Below, one piece after another: positions 14,109 through 55,808 of a stretch of 64,000 nt of DNA; positions within the stretch are counted from its first letter, which is position 1, and each line of letters begins with the position of its first letter. Position numbers and translations under genes: made by a program. The notes under the pieces were generated by a model. It did not search any database. It saw only the letters and a list, made by a program, of their open reading frames with translations, and was not told the DNA's origin. The stretch lies in NCBI GenBank assembly GCA_050123375.1, contig JASFHF010000004.1, positions 5,116 through 69,115 on the forward strand, read 5' to 3'. Origin of the DNA: Gammaproteobacteria bacterium. GTDB taxonomy: Bacteria > Pseudomonadota > Gammaproteobacteria > UBA12402.

Positions 14109-14180
14109 GGGGGTCGCATCTTCACTCATTACATATGCGTTGTATGTTGCATCATGTAATGAGTGAAGATGCGACCCCCT
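14109..14180. repeat. Intergenic hairpin (REP/MITE-like) element, family member
   Basis: GGGGGTCGCATCTTCACTCATTACAT...ATGTAATGAGTGAAGATGCGACCCCCT imperfect palindrome; its stem is identical to the copy at 56217-56274. Confidence 0.7.
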
Positions 14181-14197
14181 GAAGACGGAAATTTATT

Positions 14198-14854: not shown

Positions 14855-14870
14855 TGAAAGGAAATAAAAA

Positions 14871-15893
14871 ATGAGTAAATTATTGAAAATGTCAAAGGCT
14901 GATATGCTGAAGTCTATTGATAAAGCAGTATTGCATTATAAAGTAGCTGCTTTAACTAAAAAAAGCGGTCAGCCTAGGTATGATTATGTATCTAATGGTG
15001 GAGAAGTGATGTTAAATTATATGCCGACAGTACTTTCTCCAAAGAAGTTTTTCTTTCCGCAGGATGAGGTTATTTTAGAATATACTGCTGATGGCAAAGT
15101 AGATCCAAAAATATCAGCAGAACCATTATTATTATTTGGAATAAGGCCATGTGATTTAAATGCAATTAAAATTTTGGATGAGGCATTTGCGGAAAGTAAT
15201 GGTGATCCTAATTATTTAGCTAAACGTGAAAAGTCGGTCATTGTTGGTATTGATTGTAAAAAAATATGTGATGAAAATGCCTTTTGTTACAAAGTTAAGG
15301 CGAATTATGCAGCTGGCGGATTTGATATAATGCTGTATGAATATGGCAGTGATTATTTAGTTGAATCAATGACTGATAAAGGCGAAAGGTTTTGTAAAAA
15401 ATATCTGGCTGCTGCAAAAACTGACGGACAAGATAAAACAAAATACGATGAGGAAAAAACACAAGGTTTTGCTGGAACGGAAACATTTAAAAATTTGGAT
15501 AGATTACCAGAAATTTTTGATGATAATAAAGATCATGCGGTTTGGAAGGAAGAAGGAAAAAAATGTCTAAGCTGTGGTTCTTGTATTATGGTATGTCCAA
15601 CTTGTTATTGTTTTGATGTTGCTGATGAGTTGGCATTAAGTCTAAAACAAGGCGAAAGAATTCGTCGTTGGGATGCATGTATGTTAAGTTCATTTGCAGT
15701 TGTAGCTGGAGGAGAAAGTTTTCGCTCTGAGGCAGAGCAACGTTTGCATCATCGGCTTGACCGCAAATTTAATTTCTTAATGAAAAAACATAATCAGTCG
15801 GTTTGTGTTGGTTGTGGACGATGTGTGCGTGCATGTCTTGCAGATATTAGTCCGAAAAAAGTTGTAGAAAAAATTGTTGGTGAAGGAGAATAG
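14871..15893 (+). CDS. cytoplasmic (group 3b-like) hydrogenase beta subunit, 4Fe-4S protein (HydB-like)
   Basis: CLSCGSCIMVCPTCYC and CVGCGRCVRAC cluster motifs; first of four genes in hydBGDA order. Confidence 0.6.
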   Translation: MSKLLKMSKADMLKSIDKAVLHYKVAALTKKSGQPRYDYVSNGGEVMLNYMPTVLSPKKFFFPQDEVILEYTADGKVDPKISAEPLLLFGIRPCDLNAIKILDEAFAESNGDPNYLAKREKSVIVGIDCKKICDENAFCYKVKANYAAGGFDIMLYEYGSDYLVESMTDKGERFCKKYLAAAKTDGQDKTKYDEEKTQGFAGTETFKNLDRLPEIFDDNKDHAVWKEEGKKCLSCGSCIMVCPTCYCFDVADELALSLKQGERIRRWDACMLSSFAVVAGGESFRSEAEQRLHHRLDRKFNFLMKKHNQSVCVGCGRCVRACLADISPKKVVEKIVGEGE

Positions 15894-16757
15894 TTGATGA
15901 ACATGAAATTAAATTTACAAAAACCAAATGAAAAATTATACGTTCCTGAGCCTGCGAAAATAGTTGAGCTTAAGGATTTTACTGCCCACGATAAATATTT
16001 TAAATTGGAATTATTGAGTGGCAAACCTTTAGGTAATGTTTCCGGACAGTTTGTACAAGTATCAGTGCTTGGGGTTGGTGAGGCACCGATTTCTATTTCT
16101 TCGCCTCCGCGTGATGATAATATTTTTGAATTATGTCTTAGAGCTGTTGGTGATGTGACCAACAAATTACATAGTTTAAAAGTTGGTGATATCGTTCATA
16201 TTAGAGGTCCTTTTGGTCATGGTTTTGATGATGCAATTCAGCAAAGAATGCAAGGCAAGCATCTGATGATTATAGCTGGAGGAATTGGTTATGCTCCGCT
16301 GCGTTCTTTAATTAACAAAGTAATTTCAGAAAAAGAAAAATATAAAAAGATTTCTGTTTTGTTTGGTTGTAAATCGCCAAGCGAAAGATTGTATGTTGAT
16401 GAATTAGAGGAAATTTCCAGGATTGGTGGCAATGTAGAGTTATTGGAAACGGTTGATGTGGCTTCCGAAAATTGGAAAGGAAACGTTGGTGTTATTACTA
16501 CACTTATTCCAAAAGTAGAATGTGATCCGGCTAATACGATTGCTGCGATGGTTGGTCCGCCGATTATGTTTAAGTTTGTGATAAAAGCATTGAAGGATAT
16601 AAGTGTTCCTGATGAAAATATTTATATGTCACTTGAGCGTAGAATGAAATGTGGTGTTGGCAAGTGCGGTCATTGCCAAATTGGAGGCGTATATGCTTGT
16701 CAAGAAGGACCGGTATTTAATTATGCTGATGTCCTAAATAATGAGGAGGTGTTTTAA
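15894..16757 (+). CDS. hydrogenase gamma subunit, FAD/NAD(P)-binding oxidoreductase with C-terminal 2Fe-2S (HydG/PyrK-like)
   Basis: FNR-like fold motifs (GxGxAP: AGGIGYAPL) and C-terminal CGVGKCGHCQ...C; 287 aa. Confidence 0.65.
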   Translation: MMNMKLNLQKPNEKLYVPEPAKIVELKDFTAHDKYFKLELLSGKPLGNVSGQFVQVSVLGVGEAPISISSPPRDDNIFELCLRAVGDVTNKLHSLKVGDIVHIRGPFGHGFDDAIQQRMQGKHLMIIAGGIGYAPLRSLINKVISEKEKYKKISVLFGCKSPSERLYVDELEEISRIGGNVELLETVDVASENWKGNVGVITTLIPKVECDPANTIAAMVGPPIMFKFVIKALKDISVPDENIYMSLERRMKCGVGKCGHCQIGGVYACQEGPVFNYADVLNNEEVF

Positions 16758-17518
16758 TGGCTAAACCAAGAGTTGCATTTTTTGATTTTGCATGTTGTGA
16801 AGGTTGTCAGTTGTGTGCGCTTGATTTAACACCAGAGCAATTGTTGGATTTATTAAACGTGGTTGATATTGTTGAATTTCGTGAAGCAATCAGTGAAAAA
16901 GCGGGTGATGCTGGTTATGATATTGCAATTGTTGAAGGTTCGATTACGCGTGACAGTGATATTCCAAGATTGAAGAAAATTCGTGAAACCGCCAAAATTC
17001 TTATCACTTTAGGTTCTTGTTCAACGATTGCTGGTATTAATGCGTTGAAAAACTTTCAGACTAAAGAAGAATATCAAAAAGAAGTGTATCCGGATGATCC
17101 AGCTAAATACGAAACTACTACCGCAAAAGCTGTGCATGAAATTGTACAGGTGGATGCATTTATTCCAGGTTGTCCAATTGATACCGGCGAATTTGTACGT
17201 GTAGTAAAAAATTTAGTTTTAGGTAAAGATCCTGCAATTCCTACTTACCCAGTTTGTGTTGAATGTAAGAAAAATGAAAATGTTTGTGTGTATGAAAAAG
17301 GCATTCAGTGTTTAGGCCCAATAATTCGTGCTGGATGCGGTGCGCGTTGTCCAAGTAATGGCGGATATTGTTTTGGCTGCCGCGGTATTATTCCTGAGCC
17401 AAACTTAAATTCACAGCAGGATATTATGCAAAAATATAATCTTACTTTTGAACAGATGAAAGATAAATTTAAATTATTCCTCGAAAGAAATAAGGAGGTA
17501 TTTCCTAATGACAAATAA
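16757..17518 (+). CDS. [NiFe] hydrogenase group 3 small (delta) subunit
   Basis: N-terminal FFDFACCEGCQL cysteine motif and additional Cys clusters (GCPIDTGE, CVECKK..., CFGCRG); 253 aa. Confidence 0.7.
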   Translation: MAKPRVAFFDFACCEGCQLCALDLTPEQLLDLLNVVDIVEFREAISEKAGDAGYDIAIVEGSITRDSDIPRLKKIRETAKILITLGSCSTIAGINALKNFQTKEEYQKEVYPDDPAKYETTTAKAVHEIVQVDAFIPGCPIDTGEFVRVVKNLVLGKDPAIPTYPVCVECKKNENVCVYEKGIQCLGPIIRAGCGARCPSNGGYCFGCRGIIPEPNLNSQQDIMQKYNLTFEQMKDKFKLFLERNKEVFPNDK

Positions 17519-18809
17519 AAATGTAAATGTCAATGTGCATCATATTACGCGGGTTGAAGGTCATGGTAATATTAAGGTTGATGTGCAAAATGGCGAACTA
17601 AAAGAATGTAAACTTGAGATTGTGGAAGCTCCGCGTTTTTTTGAGGCGATGTTAAAAGACCGTCATTACAGTGAAGCAGCATTGATTACCAGTAGAATTT
17701 GCGGAATTTGTTCTGCTGGACATCAATTAGCATCACTTACAGCATCAGAAGATGCTTTTGGTATTTCAATTTCCGAGCAGGAAAAGTGTTTACGCCGCTT
17801 GCTGAATGTTGGAGAATTCTTTGAGAGTCATGTGCTGCATATTTATTTTCTTGCAGTTCCGGATTTTGTTGGCGCAAAATCAGTATTGCCATTAGTTAAT
17901 ACACATAAAGATGTTGTGGTGCGAGCATTGCAGCTTAAAAAACTTGGTCATCATGTTGGTAATTTAATCGCAGGTCGGTTAATTCATTCCATGGCGACTA
18001 ATGTTAAGGCAATGACTAAGATTCCAACTGATGCGATTTTGGAAGAAATTATTGATAGTTTAAAAGAAGCTAAAAAACAGCTTAAAGAAGACATCAAAAC
18101 TTTACAAACCTTAAAGGTTCCTGCGTTTGAAAGAGAAACGGAATATATTTCGTTGTACAAACCAGGTGATTATGCTTTCTTATGGGGTAATATTTATTCT
18201 AGCGATACTGGTGAAACTTCATATAAAAATTATTTAGAAATGACTAATGAGTATTTAGTTGATCATTCAACCGCAAAACGTACCAAACATCAGCGTGATT
18301 CATTTATGGTTGGAGCGTTGGCACGGTTTAATAATAGTCATGAGTGGTTATCAAATGACGCTAAACAAGCGGCTGCTGATTTAGGTTTAAAAGCTCCTTG
18401 TTATAATTCATATATGATTACGGTAGCGCAATTTGTAGAATTATTCCATATTGCTGATGATGGCATCAAAGCAGCCGAAGAATTACTTAATATGCAGCGT
18501 AAACTTGAAGATCGATCATTCCCGGTTAAAGCTTGTACCGGAGTTGGCGCTGTCGAAGTGCCGCGTGGTATTTTGTATCACGAATACACTTATGATGATA
18601 AAGGTTATATGCAAAAAGCCAACTGTATTATTCCAACCGGACAAAACTTAAATAACATTGAAGATGATTTTCGCGCATTGATTCCAACGATTTTGGATAA
18701 ATCGCAGGAAGAAATCACTTTGTTGTTGGAAATGATGGTGCGTGCGTATGACCCATGTATTTCATGTTCTGCGCATATTCTTGATGTGGAATTTGTGAAC
18801 GGTGAGTAG
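17508..18809 (+). CDS. [NiFe] hydrogenase group 3 large (alpha) subunit
   Basis: RICGICSAGHQ near the N-terminus and DPCISCSAHILD near the C-terminus; 433 aa, with the His-containing C-terminal extension cleaved by the protease. Confidence 0.8.
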   Translation: MTNKNVNVNVHHITRVEGHGNIKVDVQNGELKECKLEIVEAPRFFEAMLKDRHYSEAALITSRICGICSAGHQLASLTASEDAFGISISEQEKCLRRLLNVGEFFESHVLHIYFLAVPDFVGAKSVLPLVNTHKDVVVRALQLKKLGHHVGNLIAGRLIHSMATNVKAMTKIPTDAILEEIIDSLKEAKKQLKEDIKTLQTLKVPAFERETEYISLYKPGDYAFLWGNIYSSDTGETSYKNYLEMTNEYLVDHSTAKRTKHQRDSFMVGALARFNNSHEWLSNDAKQAAADLGLKAPCYNSYMITVAQFVELFHIADDGIKAAEELLNMQRKLEDRSFPVKACTGVGAVEVPRGILYHEYTYDDKGYMQKANCIIPTGQNLNNIEDDFRALIPTILDKSQEEITLLLEMMVRAYDPCISCSAHILDVEFVNGE

Positions 18810-18877
18810 CAATGCTGTCATCCCGCGACCTAGTTAGTTGATCGCGGGATCCAGTAATATGCAAGTTATCGAGATCT

Positions 18878-27676: not shown

Positions 27677-27845
27677 ATTGGGGACAGGTCTTCACCCATT
27701 ACAAAGCAACAAACAAGGCACTTGTAATGCGTGAAGACGCTGTCCCACAATGCTATTATAATTGGGGACAGGTCTTCACCCATTACAAAGCAACAAACAA
27801 GGCACTTGTAATGCGTGAAGACGCTGTCCCACAATGCTATTATAA
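27677..27845. repeat. Perfect 84-bp x2 tandem duplication, each unit containing a ~66-bp hairpin element of the REP/MITE-like family
   Basis: Unit ATTGGGGACAGGTCTTCACCCATTACAAAGCAACAAACAAGGCACTTGTAATGCGTGAAGACGCTGTCCCACAATGCTATTATA repeated head-to-tail in the envC-gpmI intergenic region. Confidence 0.8.
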
Positions 27846-29655: not shown

Positions 29656-31023
29656 ATGGCGGTTAAGGCATCTTCACAATCATTTGGTAATGATGTAAGA
29701 CAATCAGTGCGTTTGTCGTTGCCGCTTATTGTTGCAAATTTGGTGCAGGCGTCCAGCGGATTTTTGGGTACGCTGATGATCGCCCATCTTGGACGCGACA
29801 ATTTAGCTGCTATGGCTTTGGGTGTTTCGGTGTATTTTAGTTTGGTGGTATTTTTATTTGGATTGTTATCATCAATTGGTGTCATGGTGGCACAGAATTA
29901 TGGCGCTAAGAATCAAGCTGGAATGGAATCTTCTTTTTCGCAGGGTTTTATTTTAGCTTTAGTCAGTTGTGTGCCGATGATATTGATTTTGTGGTTTGCG
30001 CCAATTATTTTTAGCTGGAGCGGTGAACCATATCATATTTCGCAAATTGCAACTAGCTATTTGCATGCTATGGTTTTGTGCGTAGTGCCGGTAGCCATGT
30101 TAGTTTCTATGGAACAGTTTTTGCTTGGGATGTCACGGACTGGTGTGGTTTTATGGGTTAGTTTGGCCGAAGTTCCGTTTGAAATTTTATTCAGTTATGC
30201 GTTTATTTTCGGGCGTTTTGGTTTGCCAAAATGTGGTATAGCGGGGCTTGGTTATGGCTTTGCATTAGTGTTTTTGCTGACGGCTTTAGGTCTTGCTATT
30301 TTTTTATGTCGCTCTAAATTATATCGGCGATATAAATTATTTTCAGGGGTAATTTACTTTAAAGCAGAATATTTTTTTGAATTGTTACGTGTTGGTTGGC
30401 CGGTTGGTTGTATGCAGGTAATTGAAGTGGTGCTGTTGTCGATATTGGCTTTTATGATGGGTAGGGTAAATAGCGATGCGCTTGCTGCAAATAGAATTGC
30501 GCGGCAGTTTTTATTAATGGGTATGATGTTTGTATTTGCGGTTTCGCAGGTTGCTACGGTACAGGTTGGTCAGGCTGTTGGCCGAAAAGATAAGTTAGGA
30601 ATCAATCGCGCGATTTTAGCTAATTTGGTTTTTGGTTGTAGTGTAACGTTTGCAATTTCGGTTTGTTATATTTTGTTTGCGCGGGATTTTATTGGTTTGG
30701 ATGTTAGTATAAATAATCCGCGTTTTGCAGCGTTGACGCATTATGCTACAGTTTTTTTGGCGTTTGCTGCTGTGTCACAAGTTTTTGATACATTGCGTTT
30801 TATTGCGATTGGCGCGTTGCGTGGTTTGAAAGATACTCGTATTCCAATGTATATTAGCATTATTACTTTTTGGTTTGTTGCGTTGCCGCTTTCGTGGGTT
30901 TTATGTTTCCCTTTAGGTTTTGATGGCAATGGTTTGTGGATTGGTTTGTTGGTTGGTGTTTTAATTGGTGCGGTTATTTTGTTGGTTCGCAATTATAAAT
31001 TAGCGCGGCAGGTTAAATTTTAA
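29656..31023 (+). CDS. MATE-family multidrug efflux transporter
   Basis: 455 aa, 12 TM, NorM/DinF-like conserved segments. Confidence 0.75.
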   Translation: MAVKASSQSFGNDVRQSVRLSLPLIVANLVQASSGFLGTLMIAHLGRDNLAAMALGVSVYFSLVVFLFGLLSSIGVMVAQNYGAKNQAGMESSFSQGFILALVSCVPMILILWFAPIIFSWSGEPYHISQIATSYLHAMVLCVVPVAMLVSMEQFLLGMSRTGVVLWVSLAEVPFEILFSYAFIFGRFGLPKCGIAGLGYGFALVFLLTALGLAIFLCRSKLYRRYKLFSGVIYFKAEYFFELLRVGWPVGCMQVIEVVLLSILAFMMGRVNSDALAANRIARQFLLMGMMFVFAVSQVATVQVGQAVGRKDKLGINRAILANLVFGCSVTFAISVCYILFARDFIGLDVSINNPRFAALTHYATVFLAFAAVSQVFDTLRFIAIGALRGLKDTRIPMYISIITFWFVALPLSWVLCFPLGFDGNGLWIGLLVGVLIGAVILLVRNYKLARQVKF

Positions 31024-32171
31024 TACAAACTTTTCCGGAACCGTTCACGAAAAACATCTTTTTTTCTGGCTTCATAATCAATGCGCAATAGAATAGCGAT
31101 TACTATAAAAGTAACTAACAAACTGCTGCCGCCGTAGCTCATTAATGGCAGGGTTAAGCCTTTGGTTGGTAATAGACCGGAATTGACTCCCATATTTACA
31201 ATTGCTTGTGTTCCTATCCAGATGGCAAATCCATAAGCCATATATCCTTCTGCATGCATGCCGGCTAGTTGGGCGCGTCGCCCGATCATGAGAATGCGTA
31301 TAACCATTAGCGTATATAATGCGATTACAATTAGAATGCCAATCAAACCTAATTCTTCGGCCAATACAGCAAATAAAAAATCTGTATGTGCTTCGGGTAA
31401 GTAAAATAATTTTTGAATGCTGCTGCCTAGGCCTGCACCAAAAATTCCGCCGCGTCCAAAAGCGATTAGCGATTGGGTTAATTGGTAACCGCTATTGAAT
31501 TGGTGTGCCCATGGGTTTAGGAATGCAGTTAAGCGTGCCATTCTATATGGAGATGAAATTGCTAGTATGCTGACAGCAATCGCAGCAAGTAATAATAATC
31601 CTACAAATTGCCACCAGCGTACTCCGCTTAAATATAACATGCTCATCGTGGTTATGGTAATTACTACAGCAGTACCAAAATTTGGTTCTTTTAATAGTAG
31701 AATAGAAATAATTCCAAGAATTATCATTGGTTTTAAAAATTCGGCCGGTTTGGTGCAGATTTCGTGATTGCGTCTGGTTAGATAGCTCGCTAAATAAATT
31801 ACAAATGCTAATTTAATAAATTCGGATACTTGTAATCTTATTGGACCTGCGCCAACCCATCGCATACTGCCGTTTACTTGATGGCCGATGCCTGGAATTA
31901 GTACGGCGATTAATAATATTAATCCGGTTAGCAGCATAAGTTTGCTAATTTTGTGCCAGAATTTTATGTTGATGCGCATAATAATTAACAAAAATAGAAT
32001 ACCTAAAAAAATATGTGCGCTTTGGTTATAAAAGAAGTGAAAAGGTTGATGGTAGAGGCGTTCTGAGATGGACGTAGAAGCAGAAGTAATCATTACCAGG
32101 CCGATAATCAATAATGCAGCTACAGTGAAGACAAAATATTTGTCGTACATGTTTGTTGTTAGTTTGTTCAT
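31020..32171 (-). CDS. ftsW: peptidoglycan glycosyltransferase FtsW (SEDS family)
   Basis: FtsW/RodA/SpoVE motifs, 383 aa, immediately downstream of murD in the dcw cluster. Confidence 0.8.
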   Translation of the reverse strand: MNKLTTNMYDKYFVFTVAALLIIGLVMITSASTSISERLYHQPFHFFYNQSAHIFLGILFLLIIMRINIKFWHKISKLMLLTGLILLIAVLIPGIGHQVNGSMRWVGAGPIRLQVSEFIKLAFVIYLASYLTRRNHEICTKPAEFLKPMIILGIISILLLKEPNFGTAVVITITTMSMLYLSGVRWWQFVGLLLLAAIAVSILAISSPYRMARLTAFLNPWAHQFNSGYQLTQSLIAFGRGGIFGAGLGSSIQKLFYLPEAHTDFLFAVLAEELGLIGILIVIALYTLMVIRILMIGRRAQLAGMHAEGYMAYGFAIWIGTQAIVNMGVNSGLLPTKGLTLPLMSYGGSSLLVTFIVIAILLRIDYEARKKDVFRERFRKSLY

Positions 32172-32180
32172 ATCATCTCA

Positions 32181-32249
32181 GGGGGTCGGGTCTTTACTCA
32201 TTACAAAGCAACAAACAAGGCACTTGTAATGAGTAAAGACACCGACCCG
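32181..32249. repeat. Intergenic hairpin (REP/MITE-like) element between murD and ftsW
   Basis: GGGGGTCGGGTCTTTACTCATTACAAAG-CAACAAACAAGGCAC-TTGTAATGAGTAAAGACACCGACCC. Confidence 0.75.
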
Positions 32250-32257
32250 ATTTGTTT

Positions 32258-33580
32258 TCACAATTCCTTCACGATTTTAATAAATTCATTTCCTCTGTGT
32301 TGGTAATCGTTGAACATGTCAAAACTAGCGCAAGCTGGTGATAGTAATATGATATCGTTTGGCATAGCTGCATCATATGCAAGTTGTACTGCTTGTTGCA
32401 AATCATCGGCTATTTTAGTAGTGCAGCTGTTTTGCAAGGTTTTTTTAAGAACGTCTGCTGCTTTACCAATTAAAATAGCTTGACGTATGTATTTTTTAGC
32501 TGCAGATTGTAGTGGAGTAAAATCAGCATTTTTGCCTAAGCCTCCGGCGATTAAAATTATTTTGCCGGAAATATTTTGACCCAAGCCTGAAAGTGCAGCC
32601 AAAGTTGCGCCGACATTAGTTCCTTTTGAATCGTTATACCATGCTGCATTATTAATAGTTCGTACTAGTTGACAACGATGTGGCAGGCCAGGAAATTCTT
32701 GTAGTGCTTTTAACATTAATTTTTGATCAAAGCCTGCTGCGTCACCAATTGCTAGCGCAGCTAAAGCATTTTCTAAGTTATGTTGGCCGATTAGTTTTAA
32801 TTTTTTTGTGTTTAACAAAAGTTGTTTGCCTTTAGCTAAATATTTTTCGTTATCGTGTTTAATAATTCCATATTGATTTTTTTCAGGCGCATCTAAACCA
32901 AAACTTATTATGGAATTTAGTTTTAAATTTTTCGTAGATTTTTCTGCGCGGTTTATCACTGCAATTTCACAGTTTTGGTAAATTTTTATTTTTGCAGCGG
33001 TGTATTCTTGCAGGTTGTGGTAACGATCCATGTGGTCTTCACAGACGTTTAATACAGCAGCAACTTTGGCGCGTAATGAAAATGCGGTTTCCAGTTGAAA
33101 GCTTGATAATTCTAAAACGTATAAATCAGCCGCAGGTAAATCTAAAGCTGGTGTGCCGATATTTCCGCCAACCTGGACGTTAATTTTAGCATAACGCGCC
33201 ATTTCGCCTACAAGAGTTGTTACCGTGCTTTTGGCATTTGAGCCGGTAATTGCGATAATTGGGGTTTGTGTTGATTGTGCAAATAATTCAATATCGCCTA
33301 CATAAGGAATACCATTTTTAATCGCATTTGCAATTACAGGTTCTTTTAAGGAAACACCAGGACTTACTATTAATAAATCAGCATTGTTAATAAATTTTGC
33401 GGAAATTTCGCCGAATGCGGTTGGAATGTTTTGCTTTATTTGATCTGCGCCGGGCGGGTTGATGCGTGAATCTGTTATGCTTATTGGCCATCCTTGCCGT
33501 TTGCAGAAGTTAACGCAAGATAATCCGGTTTTGCCCAGTCCAACAATAACAACATTATGGAATTTTTTTTTAATCATCAG
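32258..33580 (-). CDS. murD: UDP-N-acetylmuramoylalanine--D-glutamate ligase
   Basis: [10 protein letters not shown]-terminal Rossmann and GSNAKST Mur ligase P-loop; probable start MIKKKFHN gives an ATGA overlap with the mraY stop. Confidence 0.85.
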
Positions 33581-34659
33581 CGTAATTTCAGAGTTGCCAG
33601 ACCACATAATACCAGAATAAAGGTGATAATCCAAAAGCGAACGATAACGCGAGGTTCGGGCCATCCTTTTAATTCAAAATGGTGGTGAAGAGGTGCCATT
33701 TTGAATAACCGTTTGCCGGTTAATTGAAATGAGATAACTTGAATAATTACCGAAATGGTTTCAACCACAAAGACTCCGCCCATAAGAAATAGGACTAATT
33801 CTTGGCGCACGATTATGGCTATAGTTCCTAAAGCTGCTCCCAGACCTAAAGCGCCGACATCTCCCATAAATACTTGAGCTGGATAGGTGTTAAACCACAG
33901 AAATCCTAAACCTGCACCAGCGATAGCAGCACAAACAATTACTACTTCTCCAGCTCCGGGAATGTGAGGTATCATTAAATATCTTGCAAAGTAAATATTG
34001 TCAGCAACATAAGCAAAAATACCTAGCGCCCCGCCAACCATGACGGTAGGTAGAATTGCCAAACCATCTAATCCGTCGGTAAGGTTTACAGCATTGCTGG
34101 CGCCAACTATAACTAGATAAGCAAATGGAATGTAGAACCAATGCAGGTGAATGGAACCATTTTTGAAAAAAGGTATAACTAATTGGGTTTCGGTAGGTGA
34201 TGCTGCAGTTATGTATAGGTAAATAGCTATAGCTAATGCAAGTATGGATTGCCAAAAAAATTTCCAGCGGGCTTTCATCCCGGCGCTGTTTTTAAAAACC
34301 AATTTGCGGTAATCATCTATAAAGCCGATAGCGCCAAAGCCTAAAGTAGCAAATAAAATTAGCCAAATATAACGGTTAGATAAATCTCCCCATAATAATG
34401 TTGCAATAGCAATGCTGATTAGAATCATAGTGCCGCCCATAGTGGGGGTTTCGGCTTTAGTGAAATGTGATCGCGGTCCAACTTTACGGATTATTTGTTT
34501 GATACTTTTAAATCTTAAGCGGCGGATGAAAAATGGTCCCAGAATAAATGAAACTATTAAAGCGGTTATGGTGGTTAAAATTGCACGAAAGGTTAAGTAA
34601 GAAAATACATTAAATGCGTGATAATATTGTTTTAAGAATTCAGCAAGCCAGAGCAACAT
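33577..34659 (-). CDS. mraY: phospho-N-acetylmuramoyl-pentapeptide transferase
   Basis: 360 aa, 10 TM, conserved DD and HHH motifs ([16 protein letters not shown]). Confidence 0.9.
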
Positions 34660-34677
34660 GTTTTAAAGCCTTTTGTT

Positions 34678-34745
34678 GGGGACGGAGCTTTACTCATTAC
34701 AAAGCAACAAGCAGGGCACTTGTAATGAGTAAAGCTCGCGTCCCC
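34678..34745. repeat. Intergenic hairpin (REP/MITE-like) element between murE and mraY, where murF is normally found
   Basis: GGGGACGGAGCTTTACTCATTACAAAG-CAACAAGCAGGGCAC-TTGTAATGAGTAAAGCTCGCGTCCCC. Confidence 0.75.
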
Positions 34746-34765
34746 TATAAATACATCATACAACA

Positions 34766-36253
34766 TTATTTTCCTTCCGCGAACAAGTTTTTAACTATTT
34801 CAATATCGCTAAAGGGTAATTTCTTGTTGCCAATAATTTGATATGGTTCGTGTCCTTTACCAGCTAATAAGACTATATCTTTGGGGGTTGCTTGCTTAAT
34901 AGTGTAAGCGATTGCTTTTATCCGGTCTAATTCGATTATAACTTTATCTGGATGATTAATGCCCTCTAAAATATCGTTGACAATTTGCTGAGGATCTTCA
35001 AATCGTACATTGTCATTAGTGATGATTACATGATCGGCTAGTTTTTCAGCAATTTTTGCCATTTTTGGGCGCTTTTTGTGGTCACGATCTCCTCCGCAGC
35101 CAAACATACAAAATAATTTACCATGGCAATGTTCGCGTAAAGTCTGTAAAGCTTGTTTTAAAGCGTCTGGAGTGTGAGAAAAATCTACTACAACCAAAGG
35201 TTTATTTTTACCAACAATGGTTTGCATGCGGCCTGGAACAGGTTGTAGTTCAGGGATGATGGATAAGATGTCGCTTAATTTATATCCCATTATGCATAAA
35301 TTGGTGATGATTGCTAGTAAATTGGAGAGATTAAAGCGGCCTACCAACCGGCTGATTAATTTGCCATGTCCCCATGGAGATAGAATTTCGGCGTTGATAC
35401 CGTTGGATTGAGCTTGTATGTTATTAGCTGCAATTATGTTTGCGTTATCGAATTTATTTGAATTTAATGTATAACCATATACTGCAAAATTACTTTTGAA
35501 TTGTTCAAACCATTTTAAGCCAATAGGATCATCAAGATTAAATATTCCATTTTGTATTGAGTTTCTAGTGAATAATCGTCGTTTTGCGGCTGCGTATTTA
35601 TTTACAGTTTTGTGATAATCTAAATGATCGTGAGTTAAATTGGTAAAGGTGCCAAATTTAATATCCATACCGGCAAATCGATTTTGATCTAGCGCATGTG
35701 ATGATGTTTCCATGACTACAGTATGAATATTTTGTTGCCTAAAATCAGCTAAAATGCGTTGCAGCATGATCGGGTTAGGTGAAGTATAGTTTGATGGGGT
35801 TAGTGATTCTGGATTGCCGTAACCCAGAGTGCCAATTAAGCCGGCATGAGTGCCAAGTTTTTGTAAAGCAGAAGTTAATAAATAGCTGATTGAGGTTTTA
35901 CCGTTAGTTCCAGTAACACCAATAGATAACATATTTTTTGATGGATTATCATAAAAAGTTGCAGCAATTTGTCCGATTTTTTCGGTTAAATTCGGCAGAG
36001 CAATAATTGGAATATTATTTTTATACGTTAGAATTGATGGTAATTTATTAGTATCGCATAAAATCACAGCAGCGCCATTTGTAATTGCTTGGTCAATAAA
36101 TTGTTTGCTATCAATAGAACTGCCTTGATATGCAAAAAACAAATAATCTGGTTTTACTTCACGGCTATCTAAGGTTAGCCCGCTGATATTAATATCAGGA
36201 GTTGTGTCTAGATTGATAATGTTTTGTAGTAGTTGCTGTAAGTTTTTTGTCAT
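34766..36253 (-). CDS. murE: UDP-N-acetylmuramoyl-L-alanyl-D-glutamate--2,6-diaminopimelate ligase
   Basis: GVTGTNGKTS P-loop, DNxR-like motif (DNVRFEDP); 495 aa. Confidence 0.85.
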   Translation of the reverse strand: MTKNLQQLLQNIINLDTTPDINISGLTLDSREVKPDYLFFAYQGSSIDSKQFIDQAITNGAAVILCDTNKLPSILTYKNNIPIIALPNLTEKIGQIAATFYDNPSKNMLSIGVTGTNGKTSISYLLTSALQKLGTHAGLIGTLGYGNPESLTPSNYTSPNPIMLQRILADFRQQNIHTVVMETSSHALDQNRFAGMDIKFGTFTNLTHDHLDYHKTVNKYAAAKRRLFTRNSIQNGIFNLDDPIGLKWFEQFKSNFAVYGYTLNSNKFDNANIIAANNIQAQSNGINAEILSPWGHGKLISRLVGRFNLSNLLAIITNLCIMGYKLSDILSIIPELQPVPGRMQTIVGKNKPLVVVDFSHTPDALKQALQTLREHCHGKLFCMFGCGGDRDHKKRPKMAKIAEKLADHVIITNDNVRFEDPQQIVNDILEGINHPDKVIIELDRIKAIAYTIKQATPKDIVLLAGKGHEPYQIIGNKKLPFSDIEIVKNLFAEGK

Positions 36254-36352
36254 AAGCAGAGGTTCACGTTTTTATTAGTTACAAGGCAATTATTTAATTT
36301 TATCATATTTTACAAAAAATGTGCGGCAATCCTTATCGCATCTTCCGTAATA

Positions 36353-36823
36353 CTACGCCAAATCTTCTGTTTTTATCAAAATAGAACCATCTGATTCTCT
36401 CTGTCCTGCCAGATATTTGCGGCGAGCCAAATGTTCAATATATTCACGGTTTTTAGTAAAGATGCTTATTAGGCTTTTGTTGTCGTTTTCAAAATGATCT
36501 TCTAGTGCTTCTCGACTGATAGCACAGGAAATAGTTGTATAACGATCTTTTCCTTTAAAAATAACAACCATGCGTCTTGAATCATATTGTTCTTCTGGTG
36601 CAGCAAAAACAAGCGTGCGTTTATCTACCATGCCTAATGTCTCAAGAATACTTAATACCGTAGATAACATAATATCAGTTTCCCCGCTTTCGAAACGGGA
36701 GATCGTAGGCGTACTAACGCCCGCTAATTTGGCAAGTTGTGTCTGAGTCAGCTTTTGTGCTTTGCGCCGCTGTTTCGCTTCTTCAACAAGACTTGGCCAA
36801 TTGATGCAAAACTGCCGTTCCAT
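36353..36823 (-). CDS. HTH-XRE DNA-binding protein with ~90-aa C-terminal domain of unknown function; candidate partner of the HipA-like kinase
   Basis: LTQTQLAKLAGVSTPTISRFESGE helix-turn-helix; lies downstream of hipA, and the ORF from its first ATG overlaps the hipA 3' end by 76 nt. Confidence 0.5.
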   Translation of the reverse strand: MERQFCINWPSLVEEAKQRRKAQKLTQTQLAKLAGVSTPTISRFESGETDIMLSTVLSILETLGMVDKRTLVFAAPEEQYDSRRMVVIFKGKDRYTTISCAISREALEDHFENDNKSLISIFTKNREYIEHLARRKYLAGQRESDGSILIKTEDLA

Positions 36824-37986
36824 CTTTTCTCCATTGTTTCTATTAATTGATCTTTTAATTTATTGCTTCCAATGCTGGATTTTTCCACCCTTGCCAATGC
36901 ATTTGGTAGCCGATTTTTTAGTGTTTCTGCAATAGTCAACAACATATCTTCTTTAATACCAAACCCTATACTAAGTTTTAATAAGTGTTTAGCTTCTAGT
37001 TTGCCTAGCGCCAAATTCCGTATGCCGCCAACATCAAGCGCAATTGCTTGGTATTGTTGATAGATGCTGGAACATACTAAGTCATAAGCAGGTGTGAGGC
37101 GTAACCCATCTTTTGTGTGAAACATGGCAAAATTCTTGAAATGCGCATCTGTATTACCGGTCAGAAAGCAAACTAAGATACGTTTTAATAATCTATATGC
37201 TTCCGCTGGAACACAGCCGGGAGTGTTTGCGATAAATTGCCCCATCTCTTCATAGCCGCCTTCATATTTATCATCCCCGGATGTACGACCAAGGAGTTGA
37301 TTGAATTCTTCAAAATGGTATGAGCGTTTACCAGTCGATGATCGGTCAAAGCGCGGAATAATCAAGGCATCTTCCTGGATGGAAGGAAGATGTACCAATT
37401 TCATTTCAACGACATCATCATTTAGCAATAATGTACGGCAGGCTTTTGTAGTCAGGTATTCTAGCTCCAATAGCTCTGCATGATTACCAGAAGCCAATTT
37501 AGCAATATGGGTGCTAAGTTCATTTGGACCTACAGGACGGAATATCTTCCCATCTTTAACAACCAGTAGTTTGCGTTGAATACCTGACAAGGAGGCACGA
37601 CTCGAGAGCGCAACTAGTGTTGTTTCATCGATGTGGTTAAGTTGATAATGTTCCTGTGGATCTGGATCAATAACTGATACTGTTCCAGCTAAATCAAATC
37701 CAAATCCCAATAGTAAGGCAAACCGGTTGTTGGTGTTTATGCCTAGCGCCCGTGCTTGAGCATCTTGGAGCCAACCTTCAGCAACTAAATTGTCAAAGAA
37801 AGGGTGAAGTCCATTTTCGGAAATGTAAGGTTTGGTACGAAGCGGCAATGTATATGCTATAGCAGGCTGTTTGGCTTCAAGATATGATGCATCATAAGTA
37901 AAAACATAGCGATTACCTGGTTTTTCTTCCAATCTTCCAGCATAGGTATCTTTGTAATAAATATTGCCCCAAAGAGTTTTTGCCAT
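36748..37986 (-). CDS. hipA: HipA-family serine/threonine kinase toxin
   Basis: 412 aa; P-loop-like LSGIQRKLLV, catalytic-loop NTDAHFKNFAM (D-x-H-x-KN), both HipA N- and C-domains. Confidence 0.75.
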   Translation of the reverse strand: MAKTLWGNIYYKDTYAGRLEEKPGNRYVFTYDASYLEAKQPAIAYTLPLRTKPYISENGLHPFFDNLVAEGWLQDAQARALGINTNNRFALLLGFGFDLAGTVSVIDPDPQEHYQLNHIDETTLVALSSRASLSGIQRKLLVVKDGKIFRPVGPNELSTHIAKLASGNHAELLELEYLTTKACRTLLLNDDVVEMKLVHLPSIQEDALIIPRFDRSSTGKRSYHFEEFNQLLGRTSGDDKYEGGYEEMGQFIANTPGCVPAEAYRLLKRILVCFLTGNTDAHFKNFAMFHTKDGLRLTPAYDLVCSSIYQQYQAIALDVGGIRNLALGKLEAKHLLKLSIGFGIKEDMLLTIAETLKNRLPNALARVEKSSIGSNKLKDQLIETMEKRWNGSFASIGQVLLKKRNSGAKHKS

Positions 37987-38091
37987 ATAAACTACACTTT
38001 ATATTTTTGTTGTTTTTCATAAAAAAATAAACTATATTTTATGTTATATTCCATTGCAAGTCAAGAATATAAACTAGACTTTACGCGCATT

Positions 38092-39759
38092 CTAAATGGC
38101 ATCCGGTGCAATATTTAAAACCCTCAAAGCTCCGCCCATGATTTTTGCAAATGTTGGTGCGGCAATTGTTCCGCCATAATAGCCATTATGCGGATCCTTA
38201 ATTACTACTGCTACTATAAGTTGTGGATTTGATGCTGGAGCTATTCCCACAAAAGAAGCAATATAGCGATGTTTATAATATCCGTGCAGTTTAGCGATAT
38301 GGGCTGTTCCAGTTTTTCCGGCTACATGATAGCCAGTAATTCTGGCACGAAATCCAGTGCCATTTGGTTGTACTACTAGTCCTAGCATTTGCAGCATACT
38401 TTGCGCAGTTTTTGCGTCCATAGCTCGTGTGCATGTTGCTTGTGCGTCGCGTTTTAAAAATGTTATTGGGCATTGTAAGCCATTGTTGGCAATTATGCCA
38501 TAGGCTTGTGCGAGTTGTAATGGAGTTACTGAAATTCCATAGCCGAAAGCCAAAGTTGCTAAAACAAATGGCTGCCAGGTTTCATGATAGGATAATGCTC
38601 CTGGGCTTTCACCTGGAAAATTGCTGTTGGTGCGTTCACCAAATCCTACCCGATGCAGTAAATCAAGAAAATGTTCAGCTGGTAATGACAAGGTCATTTT
38701 GGTTACGCCAATATTGCTGGATTTTTGTAGAATTTCTGCAACTGTTATTTTGCCGTGATTTTTCCAATCAGTATCGTGGACGATATTGTTGCCGATTTTT
38801 AGACGGCCGGGATTAGTATTAACGATAGTGTTGTCAGTATATTTACCGCTATCAAGTGCGCTGGCAATACTGAAGGCTTTCATGGTTGAGCCAGGTTCAA
38901 ACATGTCGGTAATGGCGCGGTTTCTAAATTGTTCATAATCATGAGATGGACGTTGATTTGGGTTAAATGAAGGTTGATTTACCATTGCAAGTATTTCACC
39001 GGTTGAGGGATTTAATACCACTACTGATCCAGATTCTGCGCGATATTTTATGACAGCGGATTTTAAATAGCGGTATGCTAAATATTGAATGCGATTATCA
39101 ATACTTAAAATTAAATCATGTCCGGATTTTGCGGTTTGAATATCATTTAAAATCGCAACAATATGTCCATATAAATCTTTTAATACTTGTTCTTTGCCTG
39201 GTATGCCGCGTAACCATGAATTATAAGCTAATTCTAAACCTTCTTGTCCCTTATCATCTATGTTGGTAAATCCCACAACTTGTGATGTAACTTCTCCTTC
39301 TGGATAGTAACGTTTATATCCTTTTTCCAAATAAACCCCGCTAAGAGCCAATTTAGCAATCTCTTGTGCTGTTTCAGGATTTACTCCGCGTTTTAGGTAA
39401 GTAAATTCGCGGTTTTTATTTTTGTGAACAATTTGGTAAATTCGTTTGTCGGAAATATTTAATAGGTGGCCAAGTTGTTGTGTATTTTTAGTATTGCAAA
39501 TAAAATCTTTCGGGTTAATCCAGACAGAATTTACTGGAGTGCTAATGGCTAATGGTACACCATTGCGATCAGAAATCATACCGCGATAGGCAGGTATATT
39601 GATAATGCGTAAAGTGCGCATGTTTCCCTGATGCAATAAAAAATTTCGATCGAAAGTAGTTAAATAAATCATACGGGCAATTAGAATGAAAATTAAAATA
39701 AGCAGCCCGCTTAAAAACAGCCAGAATCGAATTGAAAGAAAAGGGATTTTATTTTTCAT
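38092..39759 (-). CDS. ftsI: peptidoglycan D,D-transpeptidase FtsI (PBP3)
   Basis: N-terminal TM, transpeptidase motifs STMK, SSN, KTGT; 555 aa; between ftsL and murE position. Confidence 0.85.
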   Translation of the reverse strand: MKNKIPFLSIRFWLFLSGLLILIFILIARMIYLTTFDRNFLLHQGNMRTLRIINIPAYRGMISDRNGVPLAISTPVNSVWINPKDFICNTKNTQQLGHLLNISDKRIYQIVHKNKNREFTYLKRGVNPETAQEIAKLALSGVYLEKGYKRYYPEGEVTSQVVGFTNIDDKGQEGLELAYNSWLRGIPGKEQVLKDLYGHIVAILNDIQTAKSGHDLILSIDNRIQYLAYRYLKSAVIKYRAESGSVVVLNPSTGEILAMVNQPSFNPNQRPSHDYEQFRNRAITDMFEPGSTMKAFSIASALDSGKYTDNTIVNTNPGRLKIGNNIVHDTDWKNHGKITVAEILQKSSNIGVTKMTLSLPAEHFLDLLHRVGFGERTNSNFPGESPGALSYHETWQPFVLATLAFGYGISVTPLQLAQAYGIIANNGLQCPITFLKRDAQATCTRAMDAKTAQSMLQMLGLVVQPNGTGFRARITGYHVAGKTGTAHIAKLHGYYKHRYIASFVGIAPASNPQLIVAVVIKDPHNGYYGGTIAAPTFAKIMGGALRVLNIAPDAI

Positions 39760-40114
39760 TATTAATTATCAAAATTTGTTGGGTTTTGGGCATAGTCATA
39801 TTTAATTTATGCCGTGCTATTTGCTCTATTCTAGTTGCAGTATCCCAAGTGCTTTTTTCTAGTAATAGTTGGCTCCATTGATTACGTAAATTTATATTTT
39901 CTGTTTGTAGAATTTGTAATTTATTTGTTAACTGACGGTTGATGTTTTGTACGCAAATAACGCCAAAGGAACTGATTAGCAGAGCAACTGTCAGGACTAT
40001 GGTGATAGTATAATTTTTAACAGCTAAAAGATTTTCGCACAAGTGCGAAAGTCTTTTAATAAAGCTTCGAGGTAGAATGGTAATGCGGTTTGATGTTTTA
40101 ACAGCAAAATTCAT
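39749..40114 (-). CDS. ftsL: cell division protein FtsL
   Basis: 121 aa, single TM plus coiled coil, between rsmH and ftsI. Confidence 0.6.
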   Translation of the reverse strand: MNFAVKTSNRITILPRSFIKRLSHLCENLLAVKNYTITIVLTVALLISSFGVICVQNINRQLTNKLQILQTENINLRNQWSQLLLEKSTWDTATRIEQIARHKLNMTMPKTQQILIINNEK

Positions 40115-41049
40115 AATAATTTCTCCGCTATTCTTAATTTAGCGCTTCGAGCTCTCCGATTTGCTTTTAATTCTTCGTTGGTTGGCTTAATTGCACGTCC
40201 AAATTTTTTTAATCTTGGTTTTAAATTTTCATGTTTTATTGGCACATCAATTGGAAAGTAATCACCCGTTGCATGTTTCTGGATAAATCGTTTTACAATA
40301 CGATCTTCTAATGAATGAAAACTTATTACCACTAATCTGCCGCCAATCGCTAATATATCTAAAGCTTTATCTAAACAACTTTGTAATTCTTCGAGTTCTT
40401 GGTTAATAAAAATTCTTATTGCTTGGAAACTTCGGGTTGCTGGATGCTTATGTTTTTCTCTTGCGGGATTAGCTTTGGCTACGATATCAGCTAATTGTTT
40501 AGTTGTTTCGATGGGCGTCGAATTCCTGGCTTTAATAATTGCATTAGCAATACGGCGCGCAAACTTTTCTTCACCATAATCTTTTAGCACTTGCATTAAT
40601 ACCGTTTCGTTAACCCGATTAATCCAGGTTGCAGCATCAATACCATGTGTTAAATCCATTCTCATATCTAGCGGTCCATCGCGTAAAAAACTAAATCCTC
40701 GAGTTTCATCTTCCAACTGTGGGGATGAAACTCCCAAATCAAGCAAAATTCCGCAAACTTTACCTACAATATTTAATTGTTTAGCTAATTTGTCAATTTC
40801 ATTAAATGATCCATGATAAATATGACAGCGTCGGTCTTTTGCTAACATTTTTTCCGCTATCATTATTGCTTCCGGATCTTTATCAATTACAATTAATTGT
40901 CCGTCGGCGGACAATTTTTCTAAAATTAATTTAGCGTGCCCGCCACGGCCAAAAGTTCCATCAATGTAAATGCCCGAAGGTTTTATATTTAAACCTTCAA
41001 TTGCTTCTTGTAATAAAACCGGAGCGTGTTGTTTATTGTCACTATTCAT
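40111..41049 (-). CDS. rsmH: 16S rRNA (cytosine1402-N4)-methyltransferase RsmH (MraW)
   Basis: HAPVLLQEAIEGL N-terminus, GTFGRGGH SAM-binding motif; 312 aa. Confidence 0.9.
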   Translation of the reverse strand: MNSDNKQHAPVLLQEAIEGLNIKPSGIYIDGTFGRGGHAKLILEKLSADGQLIVIDKDPEAIMIAEKMLAKDRRCHIYHGSFNEIDKLAKQLNIVGKVCGILLDLGVSSPQLEDETRGFSFLRDGPLDMRMDLTHGIDAATWINRVNETVLMQVLKDYGEEKFARRIANAIIKARNSTPIETTKQLADIVAKANPAREKHKHPATRSFQAIRIFINQELEELQSCLDKALDILAIGGRLVVISFHSLEDRIVKRFIQKHATGDYFPIDVPIKHENLKPRLKKFGRAIKPTNEELKANRRARSAKLRIAEKLL

Positions 41050-41174
41050 TTTTAAAGGGTGGCTAAGGAGGAGAGATATTCCTTTATCAACTTATCCGTT
41101 TTCCTTGGATGTAATCTCCTTAGCCAAAACTTTTGTGCAGAGATTGCAAAAAATGCTCGTCTGCGTAGCATTAA

Positions 41175-41633
41175 TTACAAAGCTATATCTTTTAATTCTT
41201 CTGGTATTTCTCCTTCTTTTACCAGTTCTGAGTTAAGCCAATGATCGCGTTGTTGTTGCCACTGTTCATTATTCCAGAGTTCAAACTTGTTACCTTGTCC
41301 TACCAGCGTTAGCTTTTTTTGTATGTTAGCATATTTGCGCAACAGGGGAGGTAGCAAAATGCGCCCGTGGCTATCCAAGGCAAGTTCAGTTGCATGGCCG
41401 ATCAACAAACGTTGAATGCGTCGGGTAGCCGGGCTAAAACTTGGTAATTTAGCGATTTTTTGTTCAATTTTTTCCCAAATTGTAAATGGGAATAATAATA
41501 AGCAGCGTTGTTCGGTATCGATGGTGATAATAATTTGTCCTTGGGCTTTCTCTAATAAGGTTTGTCGATAGCGCACTGGGATTGCAATCCGCCCTTTTTG
41601 ATCGACATTAATAGAGTTGATGCCACGAAACAT
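41175..41633 (-). CDS. mraZ: transcriptional regulator MraZ
   Basis: MFRGINSINVDQKGRIAIP N-terminus, duplicated MraZ domain; 152 aa. Confidence 0.85.
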   Translation of the reverse strand: MFRGINSINVDQKGRIAIPVRYRQTLLEKAQGQIIITIDTEQRCLLLFPFTIWEKIEQKIAKLPSFSPATRRIQRLLIGHATELALDSHGRILLPPLLRKYANIQKKLTLVGQGNKFELWNNEQWQQQRDHWLNSELVKEGEIPEELKDIAL

Positions 41634-42396: not shown

Positions 42397-42460
42397 GGGA
42401 GACGGGTCTTTACTAATTACAAAGCTACGCACTTGTAATTAGTAAAGACCCGTCCCCTCC
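42397..42460. repeat. Intergenic hairpin (REP/MITE-like) element
   Basis: GGGAGACGGGTCTTTACTAATTACAAAG-CTACGCAC-TTGTAATTAGTAAAGACCCGTCCCCTCC. Confidence 0.7.
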
Positions 42461-55730: not shown

Positions 55731-55798
55731 GGGACGGAGCTTTACATAATTACAAAGCAACAAGCAAAGCTTTGTAATTATGTAATAGCTCGCGTCCC
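55731..55798. repeat. Intergenic hairpin (REP/MITE-like) element
   Basis: GGGACGGAGCTTTACATAATTACAAAG-CAACAAGCAAAGC-TTTGTAATTATGTAATAGCTCGCGTCCC. Confidence 0.7.
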
Positions 55799-55808
55799 GC
55801 TTAATTCT

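Follow-up and report, generated by a model that had tools for sequence, protein, structure and literature searches.

The closest described relatives of the element studied here are the HipA-type toxin–antitoxin (TA) modules, in which a HipA-family kinase is paired with a HipB antitoxin that carries a helix-turn-helix (HTH) domain. The classical gene order is hipB-hipA, and the account of the rare toxin-first organisations in a survey of 1,239 modules lists 8 hipAB and 12 hipEB loci, none of them experimentally tested (PMC8262856). A second domain relevant here, DUF1488, is represented by structure 2gpi, a stand-alone 91-residue protein of unknown function (PMC2954204). Here, we analyse a 64,000-nt stretch of a gammaproteobacterial metagenome-assembled genome (MAG), hereafter the window, in which a hipA gene and an overlapping gene for an HTH–DUF1488 protein lie between ftsI and murE of the dcw cluster of cell-wall and division genes. 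The best explanation overall, to which we assign a probability of about 0.8, is that this pair is a self-contained type II TA cassette in an eroded dcw cluster, and that the missing murF and murG and the hairpin elements in the cluster's spacers are older or unrelated. On this view, the dcw cluster was fragmented before the cassette arrived by horizontal transfer and inserted between ftsI and murE, in the orientation of the neighbouring genes.

An intact HipA kinase and a two-domain antitoxin

Genes were identified with hidden Markov models, using Pfam and NCBIfam profiles with curated cut-offs. The module and its surroundings comprise the following features.

38069..38083, minus strand: operator O1, TAAAGTCTAGTTTAT, 97 nt upstream of the hipA ATG and 8 nt past the ftsI stop codon
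38036..38064, minus strand: sigma-70-like promoter, TTGACT-17 nt-TAAAAT, matching the consensus at 10 of 12 positions
38027..38041, minus strand: operator O2, TAAAATATAGTTTAT, at about -55/-56, overlapping the -10 hexamer
37987..38001, minus strand: operator O3, TAAAGTGTAGTTTAT, at -15, abutting the hipA start codon
36748..37986, minus strand: hipA, 412-aa HipA-family Ser/Thr kinase toxin; Couple_hipA (PF13657) 85.5 bits and HipA_C (PF07804) 130.3 bits, both above gathering scores
36353..36823, minus strand: hipB-like antitoxin, 156 aa, with N-terminal HTH_3 (52.7 bits) and C-terminal DUF1488 (57.3 bits)
36254..36352, minus strand: antitoxin-murE spacer, fold z = +0.55

The catalytic D-x-H-x-KN loop of the kinase, described as intact in an initial annotation of this DNA made from the letters alone, is indeed complete. 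Aligned to the HipA of Shewanella oneidensis, the protein carries the Gly-rich loop S132-L-S134-G-I-Q-R-K139, the catalytic loop D280-A-H282-F-K284-N285 and the Mg-binding residue D302, all of which are conserved in at least 95% of 53 aligned family members. Across the alignment, it matches 99 of the 100 columns that are at least 95% conserved among these members. Its closest solved relative is the S. oneidensis enzyme itself (4pu3/4pu5, E 3e-20). By its sequence, the module is thus a genuine and intact HipA-family TA pair. By analogy with studied systems, HipA would be growth-inhibitory and held in check by the antitoxin; upon loss of the antitoxin, the free kinase would phosphorylate an aminoacyl-tRNA synthetase and arrest growth.

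DUF1488 (PF07369) occupies the C-terminal 85 residues of the antitoxin and scores 57.3 bits against a cut-off of 22. An AlphaFold2 model of the protein (pLDDT 91) shows two domains. The top Foldseek match of the C-terminal half is 2gpi (E 6.7e-5, target-normalised TM-score 0.78, root-mean-square deviation 2.9 A), and the N-terminal half matches the fold of HipB from Legionella pneumophila, S. oneidensis, Pseudomonas fluorescens and Escherichia coli. The antitoxin is also similar to the Y4mF family of antitoxins (TIGR03070, couple_hipB), scoring 53.1 bits, below the threshold of 71.65. By analogy with known HipA modules, contact with HipA and its neutralisation are probably the task of the DUF1488 domain.

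Three exact copies of TAAANNNTAGTTTAT (38069-38083, 38027-38041 and 37987-38001) lie in the 105-nt stretch that separates ftsI from the hipA start codon; no further exact copy was found in the 64-kb window. These predicted operators are 16-bp palindromes of the form ATAAA-N6-TTTAT, spaced by 40-42 bp, which bracket and overlap the promoter and the hipA start codon.

The pair was gained in a single lineage

We retrieved the dcw regions of six relatives through their MurE proteins (51-87% MurE identity); the window's own MurE and HipA are MGD9152355.1 and MGD9152357.1, on a contig of 73.5 kb. The gene orders, with genes foreign to the cluster in parentheses, are as follows.

L060, MurE 87%, ~90% nucleotide identity and colinear: rnhB-mraZ-rsmH-ftsL-(PALP gene, opposite strand)-ftsI-murE-mraY-murD-ftsW, then convergent MATE
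L061, MurE 84%: rsmH-ftsL-ftsI-murE-mraY-murD-ftsW, then convergent MATE
L067, MurE 84%: ftsI-(AAA_14/DUF4143 gene)-murE-mraY-murD-ftsW, then convergent MATE
L068, MurE 66%: mraZ-rsmH-ftsL-(DnaJ-domain gene)-ftsI-murE-mraY-murD-ftsW
P0009 contig (JGI 3300042731), MurE 63%: ftsI-(AAA_14/DUF4143 gene)-murE-(MFS gene, 1142-aa open reading frame)-mraY-murD-ftsW, then convergent MATE
L063/L064, MurE 51%: ftsL-(two unknown open reading frames)-ftsI-murE-mraY-(NTP-transferase, Y1 transposase)-murD-ftsW-murG-murC-murB-ddl

The hipA-HTH pair is absent from the dcw clusters of all six. Because of this absence, including from the closest relative L060, the pair was in all likelihood acquired by the window's lineage once it had separated from L060, as a recent, strain-specific and horizontal event. 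This agrees with the initial annotation, which had suspected a recent insertion and proposed the comparison with related genomes.

Nucleotide homology to the sister genomes L060 and L061 breaks on the ftsI side at ~38099 (blastn) and resumes on the murE side at ~36255. Similarity between the window module and other modules is confined to 38076-36359, and therefore the transferred unit appears to consist of the operators, hipA and the antitoxin gene, ~1.73 kb in all (about 38083 to 36353), beginning 8 nt past the ftsI stop. L065, a 2987-nt contig that a separate Logan assembly produced from run SRR11697952, matches window positions 35873-38859 at 100% identity and crosses both the ftsI-hipA and the HTH-murE junctions; the arrangement is therefore no joining error of one assembler. 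A 5-nt ATGCG repeat found at both insert edges was considered as a target duplication and lies within chance expectation, and integration next to a tRNA gene was excluded by Rfam and tRNA scans of the whole window, which found nothing.

MurE relatives drop to ~50% identity at Coxiella-like and Coxiellaceae MAGs. On the strength of these MurE relatives and of a protein with von Willebrand A and U-box domains encoded in the window (see below), of a kind typical for effectors of Legionella-like bacteria, we treat the organism as an uncultured Legionellales/Coxiellales-like and probably host-associated bacterium.

The relatives further show different foreign genes at the ftsL-ftsI, ftsI-murE, murE-mraY and mraY-murD junctions. 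The dcw cluster of this lineage is therefore, as judged from these gene orders, permissive rather than rigid, with the ftsI-murE spacer as a recurrent insertion point. The premise of the initial annotation that dcw order is among the most conserved in bacteria does not hold for this lineage, whose clusters carry PALP, DnaJ-domain, AAA_14/DUF4143, MFS, NTP-transferase and Y1 transposase genes as well as the 1142-aa reading frame. Outside rod-shaped bacteria, dcw order is known to be looser (PMC10214165), and these clusters fit that pattern.

In L060, a 151-nt copy of the ftsI 5' end, 85% identical to window positions 39593-39743, precedes the PALP-family gene (6506-7629, on the opposite strand from its neighbours ftsL and ftsI) and is a footprint of the insertion event. 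AAA_14/DUF4143 ATPase genes recur near cell-wall genes (L067 274-1455; the P0009 contig; L069 1497-2816; L063 2378-3559): at the ftsI-murE junction in two relatives, beside a solitary murG described below, and, in a third relative, upstream of mraZ. The copies have diverged, two of them sharing 25% identity, a picture that suggests a mobile gene family which inserted repeatedly.

A widespread toxin-first family

A scan of a genome collection returned 58 loci with HipA proteins 44-76% identical to that of the window, and a metagenome scan added 80 further loci. Most of the genome loci belong to Legionellales, Coxiellaceae, Berkiella, Francisellaceae and unclassified gammaproteobacterial MAGs, and some to Holosporales, Paracaedibacter, Rickettsiales, Nitrospira and deltaproteobacteria. 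All 58 have hipA followed by an overlapping HTH gene. Among the 80 metagenome loci, 74 do, and a contig end inside hipA cuts five of the remaining six. None of these 138 loci lies inside a dcw cluster. In the plasmid collection, the relatives of HipA found were only 32% identical. One of these, on Ensifer adhaerens plasmid NZ_CP083351.1 (599161-601289), is likewise toxin-first, with a 382-aa HipA-domain gene followed by an overlapping gene for a 337-aa "transcriptional regulator", next to an IS30 transposase.

The toxin-first arrangement with its 76-nt overlap, pointed out in the initial annotation, is exact in the window and a conserved trait of the family, the same 76 nt being found in most close homologues. 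This conserved overlap probably couples translation of the antitoxin to that of the toxin. The motif TAAA-N6-TTTA likewise keeps its three positions (-97, -56 and -15) across the window and most homologues, with 1.8 exact matches per upstream region against a background of 0.008 per 156 nt in the same loci. We infer autoregulation through these palindromic operators, a pattern that is both present and positionally conserved: an antitoxin dimer would bind the operators and repress the promoter, by analogy with HipBA (PMC8262856).

The family falls into two subfamilies. Kinases at least 55% identical to the window HipA are paired with a 153-164-aa HTH_3+DUF1488 antitoxin, and more distant kinases with a 66-78-aa antitoxin consisting of the HTH alone, at an overlap of 52 nt. 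A separately encoded DUF1488 protein in this second subfamily was ruled out, as no DUF1488 gene lies nearby in those loci. Altogether, HTH-fused DUF1488 occurs at 40 genome and 55 metagenome loci. The long antitoxin is related (E <= 1e-5) to 360 protein clusters; among the 120 of these that were listed, all but two are HTH_3+DUF1488 proteins of ~155 aa, which carry no annotation beyond "XRE-family regulator" or "DUF1488 family protein". A literature search did not find HipA together with DUF1488, and the HTH–DUF1488 combination appeared in no paper searched. Hence, the module represents a well-delimited and widespread family (~140 loci, 360 antitoxin clusters) of toxin-first hipAB type, with a fixed 76-nt overlap, three operators and a DUF1488 fusion, and it offers a testable function for DUF1488, whose crystal structure dates from 2006 and to which no role has been assigned since.

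Two family loci stand out for their surroundings. On CAWDUG010000013.1, two hipA/HTH–DUF1488 modules (L019 and L022) lie ~40 kb apart with near-identical upstream regions. In a Holosporales MAG (L045 8122-11352), a module with the short HipB lies upstream of mraZ, at a distance of ~1.5 kb and in divergent orientation; the dcw cluster of that genome is intact and includes murF. As a second, independent instance of the module close to dcw genes, this is probably a coincidence.

murF, murG and hairpin repeats

The dcw segment of the window consists of ten minus-strand genes in the order mraZ-rsmH-ftsL-ftsI-(hipA-HTH)-murE-hairpin-mraY-murD-hairpin-ftsW, all scoring above curated cut-offs. Besides hipA and the antitoxin gene, its features are as follows.

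41175..41633, minus strand: mraZ, TIGR00242 150 bits (cut-off 98)
40111..41049, minus strand: rsmH (mraW), TIGR00006 398 bits
39749..40114, minus strand: ftsL, TIGR02209 67.7 bits (cut-off 42)
38092..39759, minus strand: ftsI, class B penicillin-binding protein with PBP_dimer and Transpeptidase domains
34766..36253, minus strand: murE, 495 aa, TIGR01085 532 bits
34660..34765, no strand assigned: REP-like hairpin in the murE-mraY spacer, the canonical murF slot, -44.9 kcal/mol, z -10.6
33577..34659, minus strand: mraY, TIGR00445 444 bits
32258..33664, minus strand: murD, maximal open reading frame, TIGR01087 420 bits, match from residue 37
32172..32257, no strand assigned: REP-like hairpin in the murD-ftsW spacer, -41.2 kcal/mol, z -10.1
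31020..32171, minus strand: ftsW, last dcw gene of the segment, TIGR02614 433 bits
29656..31023, plus strand: MATE efflux gene, convergent with ftsW and closing the cluster, TIGR00797 214 bits

These profile matches bear out the gene order given in the initial annotation, from mraZ through ftsW to the convergent MATE gene. The true start of murD probably lies near 33577, which would give a protein of 439 aa, as in the L060 gene call. The MATE and ftsW genes overlap by 4 nt, and L060, L061, L067 and the P0009 contig each have a MATE gene at this place. murE is of normal length, as had been noted, and a murE-murF fusion was ruled out: the fusion model NF008896 matched over positions 13-496 of 965 only, that is, over its MurE half.

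murF and murG are missing from their canonical slots, again as first annotated. The 106-nt murE-mraY spacer contains the hairpin repeat only, and ftsW is followed by the convergent MATE gene instead of murG-murC-murB-ddl-ftsQAZ. No MurF or MurG was detected among 40 large open reading frames of the window, 30 of them outside the cluster, a set that covers nearly all frames of at least 200 aa. All six relatives, the most distant of them at 51% MurE identity, lack murF between murE and mraY, and the five closest lack murG after ftsW, the canonical continuation being found only in the 51% relative L063. It follows that, by this comparison of gene orders, both gaps are lineage-typical, and they are older than and unrelated to the hipA-HTH insertion. 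The initial annotation had itself named an arrangement shared by related genomes as the refuting case, and for the murF and murG half of its claim this case applies: the absences are not tied to the insertion.

Using the MurG of L063 as bait and then NCBI accession numbers, we traced a murG match (P0259, MGD9153396.1) that lies ~1,040 accessions from the window proteins and whose protein is present in the same run, SRR11697952. This gene stands alone on a 56.9-kb contig (JGI 3300042731), adjoined on one side by a divergent rpmB and on the other by an AAA_14/DUF4143 gene followed by mnmA, dnaX, ybaB and recR. Very probably, murG was relocated as a single gene and belongs to the same genome as the window. 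Of the genes that the initial annotation proposed to locate elsewhere, murG was thus probably traced, beside rpmB on another contig; murF was not located. At most 5 kb from the solitary murG lie phd/yoeB and hicA/hicB pairs (P0259 contig, locus coordinates 5842-9341), and the genome appears rich in TA modules.

The hairpins in the murE-mraY and murD-ftsW spacers, both reported in the initial annotation, exist (hairpins of ~27 bp, with cores 91% identical) and are not specific to the dcw cluster. Further copies lie at 14119-14182, 27687-27738, 27771-27822, 42401-42457 and 55731-55800, which gives at least seven copies in 64 kb, all intergenic and two of them in tandem between an envC-like gene and gpmI. 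Their core, CTTTACTCATTACAA ... TTGTAATGAGTAAAG, is flanked by GGGGACG/CGTCCCC. L060 carries copies in partly different spacers, one of them in the same murD-ftsW spacer. A role as dcw-specific terminators was ruled out by the spread of copies across the window, and from their sequence and distribution the elements are best classed as a dispersed, genome-wide repeat resembling repetitive extragenic palindromes (REP) or miniature inverted-repeat transposable elements (MITE), not as a dcw feature. No REP-associated Y1 transposase (RAYT) was found in the window; the distant relative L063/L064 has a Y1_Tnp gene within its dcw cluster.

Weighing the alternatives

That the pair reflects an assembly or binning artefact, with a foreign fragment joined into a dcw contig, has to be considered for any window taken from a MAG, and the HipA of the window forms a singleton cluster at 90% identity. 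We regard this as very improbable: the separate Logan assembly is identical across both junctions, the composition of the cassette matches the host, and both flanks keep their colinearity with the sister genomes as far as the end of ftsI and the beginning of murE. A different proposal accepts the insertion and holds that the module was recruited into the division operon, such that a HipB-repressed promoter drives or modulates murE-mraY-murD-ftsW, read-through from the mraZ promoter ties TA dosage to transcription of the division genes, and growth arrest is thereby coupled to cell-wall synthesis. The module is co-oriented with the cluster, begins 8 nt past the ftsI stop and has a good promoter at 38064..38036, and no terminator or stable structure is predicted between the antitoxin stop and the murE start (36254..36352), so that transcripts from the module promoter should reach murE. 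Yet the insertion is confined to a single strain-level lineage, relatives tolerate unrelated genes at the same junction, some on the opposite strand, which speaks against a tight operon constraint, and the module loci elsewhere give no second case (0 of 138 in dcw). Toxin and antitoxin are moreover co-transcribed from whichever promoter is active, and read-through by itself would leave their ratio unchanged. Recruitment is thus unlikely, and the suggestion in the initial annotation that the kinase couples toxin expression to growth is speculation. The module has its own predicted autoregulated promoter. We are similarly doubtful of a broader, compound claim, namely that HTH–DUF1488 proteins are an unrecognised HipB class with DUF1488 as the kinase-binding or neutralising domain and that, in this genome, murE-mraY-murD-ftsW have come under TA control through the cassette promoter, which would tie the synthesis of peptidoglycan precursors to what a persistence kinase is doing. 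If this were true, DUF1488 would gain its first function.

TA modules have been widely proposed to act in phage defence and in the stabilisation of DNA segments (PMC8262856), and the pair may be mainly an anti-phage abortive-infection or genome-stabilising ("addiction") element, whose position in an essential operon hinders its deletion. The genome carries other TA modules (phd/yoeB and hicAB near murG, and a Panacea-domain antitoxin at 22629-23435), and AAA_14/DUF4143 genes recur at the same junctions in relatives. Against this, PADLOC models gave marginal matches only (E 1e-4, over 40 residues), and the module has neither phage nor defence-island genes as neighbours in the window. We rate this possibility as less likely than not, and it is compatible with, rather than exclusive of, a self-contained cassette in an eroded cluster. 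For that preferred explanation, the dcw location is most plausibly neutral or tolerated, and addiction may contribute to the persistence of the module. Nothing indicates that its position matters to the cell: it is found in one strain-level lineage, whose relatives tolerate unrelated genes at the same spot. As a co-oriented cassette without a predicted terminator, it probably leaves transcription into murE unbroken, and its promoter may add to murE transcription; we infer that dcw expression would otherwise be unaffected.

Several points weigh against the cassette explanation or parts of it. The L065 contig may share reads with the MAG, and its confirmation of the junctions is therefore not fully independent. 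No alignment was obtained among the ftsI-murE spacers of the window, L060 and L061, and these comparisons revealed no clean empty site, target-site duplication or mobility gene. The GC content at third codon positions of the cassette (0.32-0.33) falls inside the host range, so that composition gives no independent sign of foreign origin. The short-HipB subfamily works without DUF1488, which makes neutralisation only one possible role for this domain, and toxicity, neutralisation and operator binding are all deduced from sequence and analogy. Finally, the assignment of the solitary murG to this genome follows from adjacent NCBI accessions and a shared run, not from physical linkage, and the JGI sample that yielded its contig (3300042731) also contains the relative with 63% MurE identity.

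Other features of the window

A second TA pair is probable at 22629-23799, where a 268-aa protein with HTH_3 and SocA/Panacea antitoxin domains (22629-23435) is followed by an overlapping 141-aa open reading frame (23374-23799) without Pfam match, which may encode an uncharacterised toxin. Two further proteins are possible effectors. The first, of 1066 aa (2511-5711), combines von Willebrand A and eukaryote-like U-box (E3 ubiquitin ligase) domains; as a candidate secreted effector, it would suit a host-associated way of life like that of Legionella. The second, of 480 aa (20287-21729), has no NCBIfam match and a weak match (E 1.6e-6) to the actin maturation protease-like C-terminal domain, and is a possible eukaryote-like effector. 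The window also holds, in a Legionellales/Coxiellales-like genome, two [NiFe]-hydrogenase gene sets (8665-19327), which suggests hydrogen metabolism: a Mrp/Mbh-like membrane complex (8665-13735) followed by hypA (13758-14108) and hypB (14198-14854), and a group-3b sulfhydrogenase-like four-subunit enzyme (14871-18809) with its HycI protease (18878-19327).

Comparison with known systems

The canonical proteobacterial dcw cluster runs mraZ-rsmH-ftsL-ftsI-murE-murF-mraY-murD-ftsW-murG-murC-...-ftsZ, and the window retains on one strand the order mraZ-rsmH-ftsL-ftsI...murE...mraY-murD...ftsW. It differs in lacking murF and murG in their slots, with murG solitary by rpmB, in ending on a convergent MATE gene, and in its long spacers, which are occupied by repeats or foreign genes. 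For cell-division biology, it thus provides an example of an eroded dcw cluster, with murF and murG gone, foreign genes at several junctions and repeats in the spacers.

Compared with the HipAB of S. oneidensis MR-1 (4pu3/4pu4/4pu5) and the HipBA of E. coli K-12, the window module shares a full-length kinase with its N-terminal subdomain, the Ser of the Gly-rich loop, the DxHxKN loop and the Mg-binding Asp, as well as a HipB-fold HTH antitoxin and several palindromic promoter operators. In contrast to both, it is toxin-first with a 76-nt overlap, and its antitoxin is twice as long and contains DUF1488. Similarity is also low: S. oneidensis HipA matches over its full length at E 3e-20, and E. 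coli HipA at E 1e-9 over residues 130-306 only. The operators of E. coli HipB have the form TATCC-N8-GGATA, as against ATAAA-N6-TTTAT in the window.

Another kinase system homologous to HipA and present in Legionellales is HipBST, known from L. pneumophila and E. coli O127. HipT and HipS of L. pneumophila match parts of the window HipA at E 2e-13 and 2e-8, and the corresponding HipB matches the fold of the antitoxin HTH. HipBST, however, comprises three genes, with the N-subdomain as a separate antitoxin protein, HipS, whereas the window encodes a single 412-aa kinase in a two-gene module. With respect to DUF1488, the antitoxin C-terminal domain matches both the Pfam family and the fold of Shew_3726 (2gpi); unlike that stand-alone protein, it is fused to an HTH and always found beside a HipA kinase.

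The reversed order, which the initial annotation had likened to newly described families, matches the toxin-first hipAB and hipEB organisations of Gerdes et al. 2021, in which, as that survey describes these groups, an HTH "HipB" gene follows that of the kinase and N-subdomain 1 is kept (PMC8262856). This likeness is one of gene order. The passages of the survey on antitoxin fusions list others and do not mention a HipB fused to DUF1488 (PMC8262856). Overall, neither the erosion of the dcw cluster nor the HipA/HTH–DUF1488 family overturns current understanding, and the module is of a known type, a toxin-first hipAB, here with a DUF1488-fused HipB, rather than a new system.

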